From a virus: a stretch of DNA of 64,000 nt. This document shows, in pieces, positions 56,320-56,521 of this stretch. How positions within the stretch are numbered: position 1 is the stretch's first letter; each line of letters starts with the position of its first letter. Under the pieces are notes generated by a model. The model saw only the letters and a list, made by a program, of their open reading frames with translations. It was not told the DNA's origin and did no database searches. The DNA is taken from positions 64,001 through 128,000 of the IMG/VR virus record IMGVR_UViG_3300037225_000932; one strand, 5' to 3'. The position numbers and the translations under genes are program-made.

Positions 56320-56521
56320 AAATAGGTGTGCTATTACGCCAAAGGGAGGGGTTAAACCAGCAATTTCACCCTACGGGTCTTGCCCGCCTTGTCATCTTCC
56401 AAGCACCCTTTGCGAATTGTCGGCAACTACTGGTGAGTTTATGCCCATATTCGCATTGCTACAAAGGCTTGGAGACTACCCACTCATTAAAGATGGCTGC
56501 TTCTAAGCCTACTTCCTATTT
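56320..56521 (-). ncRNA. 23S rRNA H42-H44 (uL11-binding GTPase-associated centre) mimic with 141-nt structured insert
   Basis: GGCUUAGAAGCAGCCAUC and GCGUAAUAGC blocks closed by AAAUAGG/CCUAUUU; own promoter motif at 56542. Confidence 0.8.

Follow-up and report, generated by a model that had tools for sequence, protein, structure and literature searches.

A free-standing phage RNA family that mimics the GTPase-associated centre of 23S rRNA

A locus of about 200 nt on the minus strand of a viral genome (positions 56521-56320 of the window) has two ends that together rebuild the GTPase-associated centre of 23S rRNA, and it belongs to a family of 129 distinct members in which this structure is maintained by compensatory base changes. 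By the window we mean the whole stretch of DNA that was analysed, 64,000 nt in length, which comprises bases 64001-128000 of an IMG/VR virus record of 173 kb with 30.6% GC and an estimated completeness of 88%. Viruses are known to imitate tRNA and short motifs of rRNA. Neither Rfam 15 nor the literature searched describes an RNA of the present kind, in which a whole tertiary domain of rRNA is copied as a separate RNA found in many phages, and to that extent the family is new and undescribed. The RNA probably imitates a ribosomal site away from the ribosome.

The copy of the GTPase-associated centre in the window

The sequence that an earlier note on this DNA had quoted at this locus is present as claimed, and comparison with the E. 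coli 23S sequence confirmed the identities it had given: GGCUUAGAAGCAGCCAUC is identical to E. coli 23S 1062-1079 and GCGUAAUAGC is identical to 1091-1100. Both hairpin loops are identical to those of E. coli, with A1067 at 56504 and A1095 at 56335. The chance expectation for an exact 18-mer in 64 kb, counting both strands, is about 2e-6. Between U1090 and G1091 the copy is interrupted by ~141 nt. The 1058-1080 pair, reported as swapped, is indeed A-U in the window and U-A in E. coli, and this pair covaries in the phage family. The A reported at 1061 is also present, and its supposed stabilising effect on the fold proved only half right, being ion-dependent: U1061A makes the fold less stable in monovalent ions but more stable when Mg2+ is present, and conservation is lacking at position 1061 (PMC6239185). 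Among the family members, A stands at 1061 in 28 of 129.

As for the extent of the mimicry, which had been given as H42-H44, the window RNA copies H43 and H44 and adds a generic closing helix, whereas its H42-like helix of 7 bp is unrelated in sequence and the uL10 site is absent. The parts of the RNA are listed in Table 1, and all of the enforced core pairs (16/16) are canonical. In the R1 alignment (R1 being the covariance model described below) neither base of the 1057-1081 pair is present in the window RNA, and 1082-1086 is U.U. The same variant is found in one further family locus (L020) and in 8 metagenome members, which makes it a subfamily trait and gives no ground to exclude the window.

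Table 1. Parts of the window RNA and adjoining elements (window positions)
Feature	Position	Strand	Observation or basis
Promoter motif CCCCCTGA-N13-AAGTTCTAAA (also written CCCCCTGA-N13-GTTCTAAA)	56542..56570	-	Heads the RNA module; activity presumed
Leader, ~20 nt, with AAGGA and mini-ORF AUG	56522..56541	-	Sequence
Closing helix, 5' strand AAAUAGG (H42-like), partner CCUAUUU	56515..56521	-	Seven Watson-Crick pairs
H43 copy: 1056, 1058-1080, loop UUAGAAGCA	56490..56514	-	E. coli identity, LSU model match, R1 alignment
Junction UUAAUGAGU: 1082-1086 mini-hairpin, then G1087, A1088, G1089, U1090	56482..56489	-	R1 alignment
Inserted domain, ~138 nt, basal helix GGG/CCC and predicted nested stems	56344..56481	-	Basal helix covaries
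Family-specific linker UUUG, inserted helix to top of H44	56340..56343	-	Absent from the 23S sampled
H44 copy: G1091-C1100, loop GUAAUA, then A1101', C1102, A1103	56327..56339	-	E. coli identity
Closing helix, 3' strand CCUAUUU	56320..56326	-	Next promoter motif ~5 nt downstream
First terminator-like hairpin and T-run downstream of the RNA	56016..56039	-	Beyond the next module (55-aa ORF, 56088-56255)

Compared with the 23S GTPase-associated centre (top of H42, H43 and H44; E. coli 1051-1108, the 58-nt fragment to which uL11 and thiostrepton bind), the phage RNA has the same H43 with its loop and an identical H44 loop, together with all fold-critical bases, the G1087-C1102 pair and a closing helix. 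It differs in being free-standing, in having an extra helix of 23-364 nt after U1090 and a UUUG linker, and in carrying A (rarely G) in place of U at 1101; the sequence of its closing helix is arbitrary and its exposed loops are relaxed. The window RNA departs further in lacking the 1057-1081 pair.

The Rfam model for bacterial LSU rRNA (RF02541) matched a 46-nt piece of the locus (56470-56515, minus strand) with 21.5 bits (E 1e-5), which falls well short of the model's gathering score, 50. A scan of the whole window at Rfam gathering thresholds returned zero families, and so did a scan of 56000-56900 at E<=10, ribosomal-protein leaders, GOLLD and ROOL included. The flanks consist of phage promoter motifs and small ORFs, not rRNA. 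The sub-gathering score, the non-rRNA flanks, the interruption of H44 and the A at 1101 set the locus apart from a bacterial LSU rRNA gene, and the flanks and the LSU score bear out the earlier description of the RNA as standing alone, independent of any rRNA gene. On the sequence evidence, an rRNA gene and an assembly chimera are both ruled out.

A covarying family in phage genomes

Searches with either half of the copy recovered a large family. The two-anchor pattern with a gap of 130-160 nt matched 12 other viral contigs. The 3' signature GGCGTAATAGCACAC, a 15-mer, was found in at least 119 contigs, compared to 17 for its reversed-letter control, and in 96 of the 124 loci scanned the 5' half lay 40-380 nt upstream of it. 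The 5' 18-mer alone was found in at least 118 contigs; about 120 of its matches belong to mimics, and no more than one is spaced as in rRNA. After deduplication there are 129 distinct members, drawn from phage contigs, metagenome-assembled genomes (MAGs) and six cultured phages, as the earlier note had predicted in expecting many homologues with variable inserts. In a collection of prokaryote genomes, 17 of 20 matches are members (75-130 bits) and 0 lie inside an LSU gene. The MAG-binned members lie among tRNA/tmRNA genes in bins assigned to Clostridia, Bacteroidota, Proteobacteria, Planctomycetota, Bdellovibrio, Saccharibacteria, Parcubacteria and others, a list that indicates breadth and not firm hosts, since the binning of phage contigs into MAGs is unreliable.

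The cultured carriers, which score 74-100 bits, are Pseudomonas phages UNO-G1W1 and pf16, Aeromonas phage 4_4572, Cronobacter phage GAP32, Pectobacterium phage CBB and Xanthomonas phage XacN1. In their records the RNA is unannotated or lies beneath an antisense 'hypothetical protein'. In UNO-G1W1 (PP551948.2, 70501-70608; our locus L272) it is placed between tRNA-Trp and tRNA-Arg with such a protein annotated on top, and this GenBank annotation is probably a mis-call. Paenibacillus phage Pd_22F (L278; MZ092003.1 around 83972) was rejected as a compact member: its match is genuine 23S, with a contiguous H44 and rRNA flanks. This 23S fragment lies near one end of the record and represents host DNA or contamination.

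The RNA is not ubiquitous, with 0 of 29 randomly drawn tRNA-bearing viral records carrying a copy. The contigs that carry it are large: their median length is 91.6 kb, compared to 13.4 kb in the reversed-pattern control (p 3e-6). No close relatives of the window phage at the DNA level were found, and the best match to its portal protein was in Bacillus phage G, at 32% identity. The family resembles GOLLD and ROOL in its location in phages and prophages, in a frequent tRNA neighbourhood and in having no assigned function; it differs in that it matches neither in Rfam, is much smaller and is defined by its copy of an rRNA domain.

To assess the structure independently of the window, we built the covariance model R1 on an alignment of 22 members (A1) from which the window was left out. 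With R1 the window scored 80.6 bits (E 1.1e-19) in a full-length match (56317-56521, minus strand), the only copy in the genome, and the genuine E. coli centre scored 53.5 bits. The paired fraction of cells in A1 is 94.8%, and compensatory changes on both sides are seen in 14 of the 21 core pairs; when the partners were moved by 1-3 columns as a slid control, only 33-51% of cells pair. Within this alignment the closing helix covaries in 6 of 7 pairs and the base of the inserted helix in 4 of 4, as do 1057-1081, 1058-1080 (UA 13, AU 5, GC 3, GU 1) and the 1082-1086 mini-hairpin (UA 10, CG 9, AU 3). These results agree with the earlier proposal that the structure is under selection, in that the homologues covary.

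The family also has characters of its own. Its members read GAGU-(helix)-UUUG-GCGUAAUAGC-A-CAC, whereas all of the matched Bacillota genomes (46/46) read GAGUGCGUAAUAGCUCAC and E. coli starts GAAAG instead. Three derived characters, namely the helix after U1090, the UUUG linker and a purine at 1101, are absent from the 23S of these 46 Bacillota and of one E. coli. The extra helix occupies the same fixed site in every member sampled and a YUUUG linker is present in nearly all. Position 1101 is A in 77 of 77, in a sample whose search pattern disfavoured G; it is G in pf16 and UNO-G1W1 and U in the 23S sampled. The window RNA has all three, reading GAGU-GGG...CCC-UUUG-GCGUAAUAGC-A, and the GAGU(G) of its junction is Bacillota-type 23S sequence. 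Because these three characters are common to the family, they argue for one origin, rather than for repeated capture of host rRNA. In structural terms U1090 would pair with A/G1101, the strand exiting to the extra helix and returning via UUUG to G1091, and through such a three-way junction H44 would keep its native ribosome-like stacking. In four jumbo-phage contigs of 146-533 kb (L101, L073, L032 and L109) the flanks continue the 23S sequence, GACAGCCAGGAUGUU... and ...CACUGGCCGAG, as a longer H42 that includes the uL10 site and that the window lacks. These four members may be closest to the ancestral capture.

Constrained bases and candidate functions

Base counts for the 5' half come from a sample anchored at the 3' end, and those for the 3' half from a sample anchored at the 5' end, which keeps the anchors from biasing them. 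Invariant positions are G1059 and U1060 (129/129), G1071, C1072 and A1077 (78/78), and G1093, U1094 and A1098 (77/77). The rRNA base is kept less strictly in the loops: at A1067 in 69/78, G1068 in 67/78, A1069 in 75/78 and A1070 in 61/78, and at A1095 in 72/77, A1096 in 61/77 and U1097 in 43/77. Thus 1067-1070 and 1095-1096 change in about 4-22% of family members, whereas the real 23S of all 46 Bacillota has AGAA at 1067-1070 and AA at 1095-1096, with only 1065, 1066 and 1097 varying; these 23S genes were found with N at every loop position, and the baseline is that of one phylum. Constraint in the family thus falls on the bases that make the fold and is relaxed at the exposed loop positions. 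In ribosomes these are the positions that contact EF-G, thiostrepton and the N-terminal domain of uL11, as is established from the 1HC8 and 1MMS structures. Such a pattern fits selection on the fold and on uL11 binding better than selection on factor or drug recognition, and the relaxation of the bases that contact the factors and thiostrepton weakens the readings in terms of GTPases, RelA or the drug relative to one in terms of uL11 and the fold. It fits a stable fold as well as it does uL11 binding.

uL11 is the known high-affinity ligand of the 58-nt rRNA fold. The reading that we favour, tentatively and at somewhat less than an even chance, is that a trans-acting RNA folds like the 58-nt domain, binds host uL11 and acts as an off-ribosome decoy or sponge. 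The RNA would be made early, from the phage's own promoter array, and its ends would fold as a self-closed copy of the centre made of H43, H44 and the generic closing helix, with the variable extra helix leaving H44 between U1090 and G1091 by the three-way junction and the native H44 stack intact. The folded RNA would then bind free host uL11 to give an off-ribosome particle, a decoy or sponge for the uL11 site. The consequences might be uL11-poor ribosomes with a blunted RelA response, or the capture of other molecules that recognise the site. Action in trans follows from the architecture, since an rRNA domain that is closed upon itself has no way of being incorporated into a ribosome. All-against-all BLASTP of 2068 flanking ORFs gave no protein cluster in more than 8 of 96 loci, no uL11 gene was found in the window phage, and no ribosomal-protein gene was found near the RNA. 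The lack of a linked protein gene and of a phage uL11 gene suggests that the partner is provided by the host, as some conserved component able to recognise the domain in its folded form, and the spread of the family over phages binned with many phyla is as expected for a universal target. Several points weigh on the uL11 reading: the extra helix, the UUUG linker and the change at 1101 could alter or block uL11 binding, the window RNA is without the 1057-1081 pair and has U.U for 1082-1086, no terminator directly follows it, and the pool of free uL11 may be too small for a sponge effect. If the RNA does bind uL11 or other clients of the centre, phages would have gained a general means of influencing how translation factors are recruited, or the stringent response, general because the target is conserved across bacteria.

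A bolder form of the proposal is that of a portable 'ribosome piece' made by phages of many bacterial phyla, in which the RNA with host uL11 would make up a pseudo-centre that diverts uL11, translation GTPases, RelA or site-specific toxins from ribosomes. We consider this rather unlikely as it stands; if true, it would define a new class of viral RNA for host takeover or counter-defence through mimicry of a whole rRNA domain. The family would also offer, as natural variation, more than 100 different sequences for one of the best-studied RNA folds, and six cultured phage-host pairs carry a member, which makes the question directly testable at the bench.

The surroundings of the RNA bear on a second possibility, that of bait. 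A tRNA or tmRNA gene lies within 100 nt in 64 of 129 members and within 500 nt in 78 of 129 (60%), always on the same strand, so that the RNA is placed among translation-related genes; in 37 of 129, the window included, no such gene occurs within 3 kb. A common view of phage tRNA arrays is that they make good the tRNAs that host defences destroy, and this neighbourhood, taken as anti-defence, together with the canonical loops of the window RNA, would suit a free copy that absorbs a defence or competitor effector which modifies or cleaves H43/H44, sparing the ribosomes that the phage needs. Effectors of this kind are known: Tre23 modifies H44 of 23S by ADP-ribosylation within 1095-1098 and impairs the GTPase activity of EF-G (PMC8661411). 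However, the bases presumed to be targeted vary among the members, as the counts for A1096, U1097 and A1067 given above attest, the literature searched contains no phage-defence system aimed at the GTPase-centre site, and a decoy of this kind must compete with tens of thousands of ribosomes. We regard bait as an unlikely function on this balance.

The insert raises the question of whether it is the inserted domain that does the actual work, as a binding site, a guide or something ribozyme-like, with the rRNA-like core providing a very stable handle that proteins protect. That every sampled member has its extra helix at one site, with covarying basal pairs, is in keeping with such a scaffold, as are insert groups defined by blastn, of 28, 11, 6 and smaller numbers of members. 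Recurrent motifs such as CACCCCGUAACUGGUAAGGA and GUGCGAAAUG…GAUGUGC define subfamilies (L004, L012, L018, L029, L058, L128 and others). Against this, the inserts vary in length from 23 to 364 nt across the family and 62 of 129 are singletons, the window's among them. The window insert has no relative among the 129 members or among the 8 metagenome matches with its junction variant, which carry different inserts. Its nested stems UCCAAGC/GCUUGGA, UGCGAAU/AUUCGCA and GCGGG/CCCGU, pointed out in the earlier note, do occur in the sequence and in the minimum-free-energy fold, but neither the insert (z -0.90) nor the whole RNA (z -0.99) is more stably folded than its shuffles, and the inner stems are predicted ones. 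Inserts as copies of other parts of 23S were also considered and rejected: in blastn-short comparisons with E. coli and a Clostridia 23S, their scores equal those against reversed 23S, and the window insert gave nothing. The core, not the insert, is the most strongly conserved part of the RNA. Given the lengths, the singletons, the isolated window insert and the lack of likeness to 23S, the effector domain that had been suggested finds no support, and we judge the scaffold distinctly unlikely.

A further alternative is that the RNA, with or without uL11, binds EF-G, EF-Tu, IF2, RF3 or RelA off the ribosome as a pseudo-site for factors and tunes translation or the stringent response. Munishkin and Wool reportedly found in 1997 that isolated oligoribonucleotides of the thiostrepton domain bind EF-G in vitro, and both loops of the window RNA are canonical. 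A 135-aa orphan ORF of the same array (61716-62123, minus strand) has a C-terminal 30-residue match to the bL12 C-terminal domain PF00542; the match scores 24.4 bits against a cut-off of 25.9, and the ORF is without homologues. Phage proteins with bL12 domains are a known class (PMC6375957). Such a motif is found in 9 of 50 mimic-bearing phages and in 3 of 15 mimic-free large tRNA-bearing phages, and as it is unenriched we rejected the bL12-like protein as a partner of the RNA. The factor-contact bases 1067-1070 and 1095-1097 are, moreover, the relaxed ones, and the window insert holds no copy of the sarcin-ricin loop. Recognition by translation factors is consequently improbable in our estimate.

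Transcription, reading frames and neighbouring genes

The locus lies in an array of CCCYGA-N13/14-GTTCTAAA motifs, 41 of which occur across the 173 kb of the genome, without exception on the minus strand; in the window they span 48894-63385, and further sites lie elsewhere. Most head one small ORF each. Since the motif does not resemble a sigma-70 promoter, it is likely to be read by an RNA polymerase or sigma factor specific to the phage. The array promoter ascribed to the RNA in the earlier note holds as a motif, one of the 41, with its promoter activity presumed. The last codons and stop (…YPPEEN*) of the upstream 80-aa ORF (56553-56795) lie inside this motif, at 56553-56570.

The claim that the RNA has no ORF stands for the family and needs qualifying for the window. 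No conserved reading frame was found among the 129 members: an open frame exists in 37 of 129, in mixed frames and strands, and family lengths modulo 3 are distributed 48/41/40. The window itself has an antisense frame of 72 aa, open at 56328-56546, and a 5-codon mini-ORF, AUG AAA AAU AGG AAG UAG (56526-56509, minus strand), which overlaps the 5' strand of the closing helix, its AUG at 56526-56524 and its UAG at 56511-56509 at the start of H43. The Shine-Dalgarno-like element is 2 nt from this AUG, compared to 7-9 nt in the coding modules of the array, and with such poor spacing translation of the mini-ORF appears doubtful. Stop-codon recoding that might hide an ORF was rejected: when TAG is taken as a sense codon, the coverage by long ORFs grows only from 73.5% to 78.5%, and no frame is conserved in the family.

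A discrete RNA of ~200 nt is plausible from this arrangement. No intrinsic terminator was found between the RNA and the hairpin at 56039-56016, so read-through into the next module is possible, and the RNA could then be the 5' part of a transcript and regulate the downstream 55-aa ORF in cis. Action as such a leader is very improbable, given that the next module has its own promoter motif, that the family is flanked mostly by tRNA genes with no conserved downstream gene, and that no ribosomal-protein leader matched in Rfam at E up to 10. The leaders of ribosomal-protein operons (L10_leader, RF00557, and the L1 site in the L11 operon) do share with the phage RNA the imitation of a ribosomal-protein site off the ribosome; they differ in being cis-acting cellular 5' UTRs that copy a small motif, whereas the phage RNA has a whole tertiary domain nearly base for base, neighbours that are tRNA genes or the promoter array, and no Rfam match. 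There is next to no chance that the locus is an artefact or junk, be it an assembly chimera with host rRNA, a decaying rRNA capture or a coding region, for although the antisense frame is open across the whole RNA and the Pd_22F record does contain a genuine 23S fragment, the phage promoter motifs in the flanks, the 129 distinct homologues with compensatory changes, the even spread of lengths over the three residues modulo 3, the scarcity and mixed orientation of open frames and the excess of the forward 15-mer over its reversed control refute this reading as far as sequence analysis reaches.

With respect to other translation-related parts of large phages (tRNA arrays, tmRNA, bS21 and bL12-domain proteins; PMC6375957), the RNA is likewise a piece of the translation apparatus carried by a large phage, but those parts can join the host machinery, whereas a self-closed rRNA domain cannot enter the ribosome. 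The window phage has 8 tRNAs, a tmRNA and the bL12-like motif protein. Its tRNAs include two with the anticodons CUA and UUA, readers of UAG and UAA, which lie outside the window at 45284-45358 and 134482-134555 of the genome record, and its tmRNA, at 25567-25940 of the same record, has the tag ANTELALAA.
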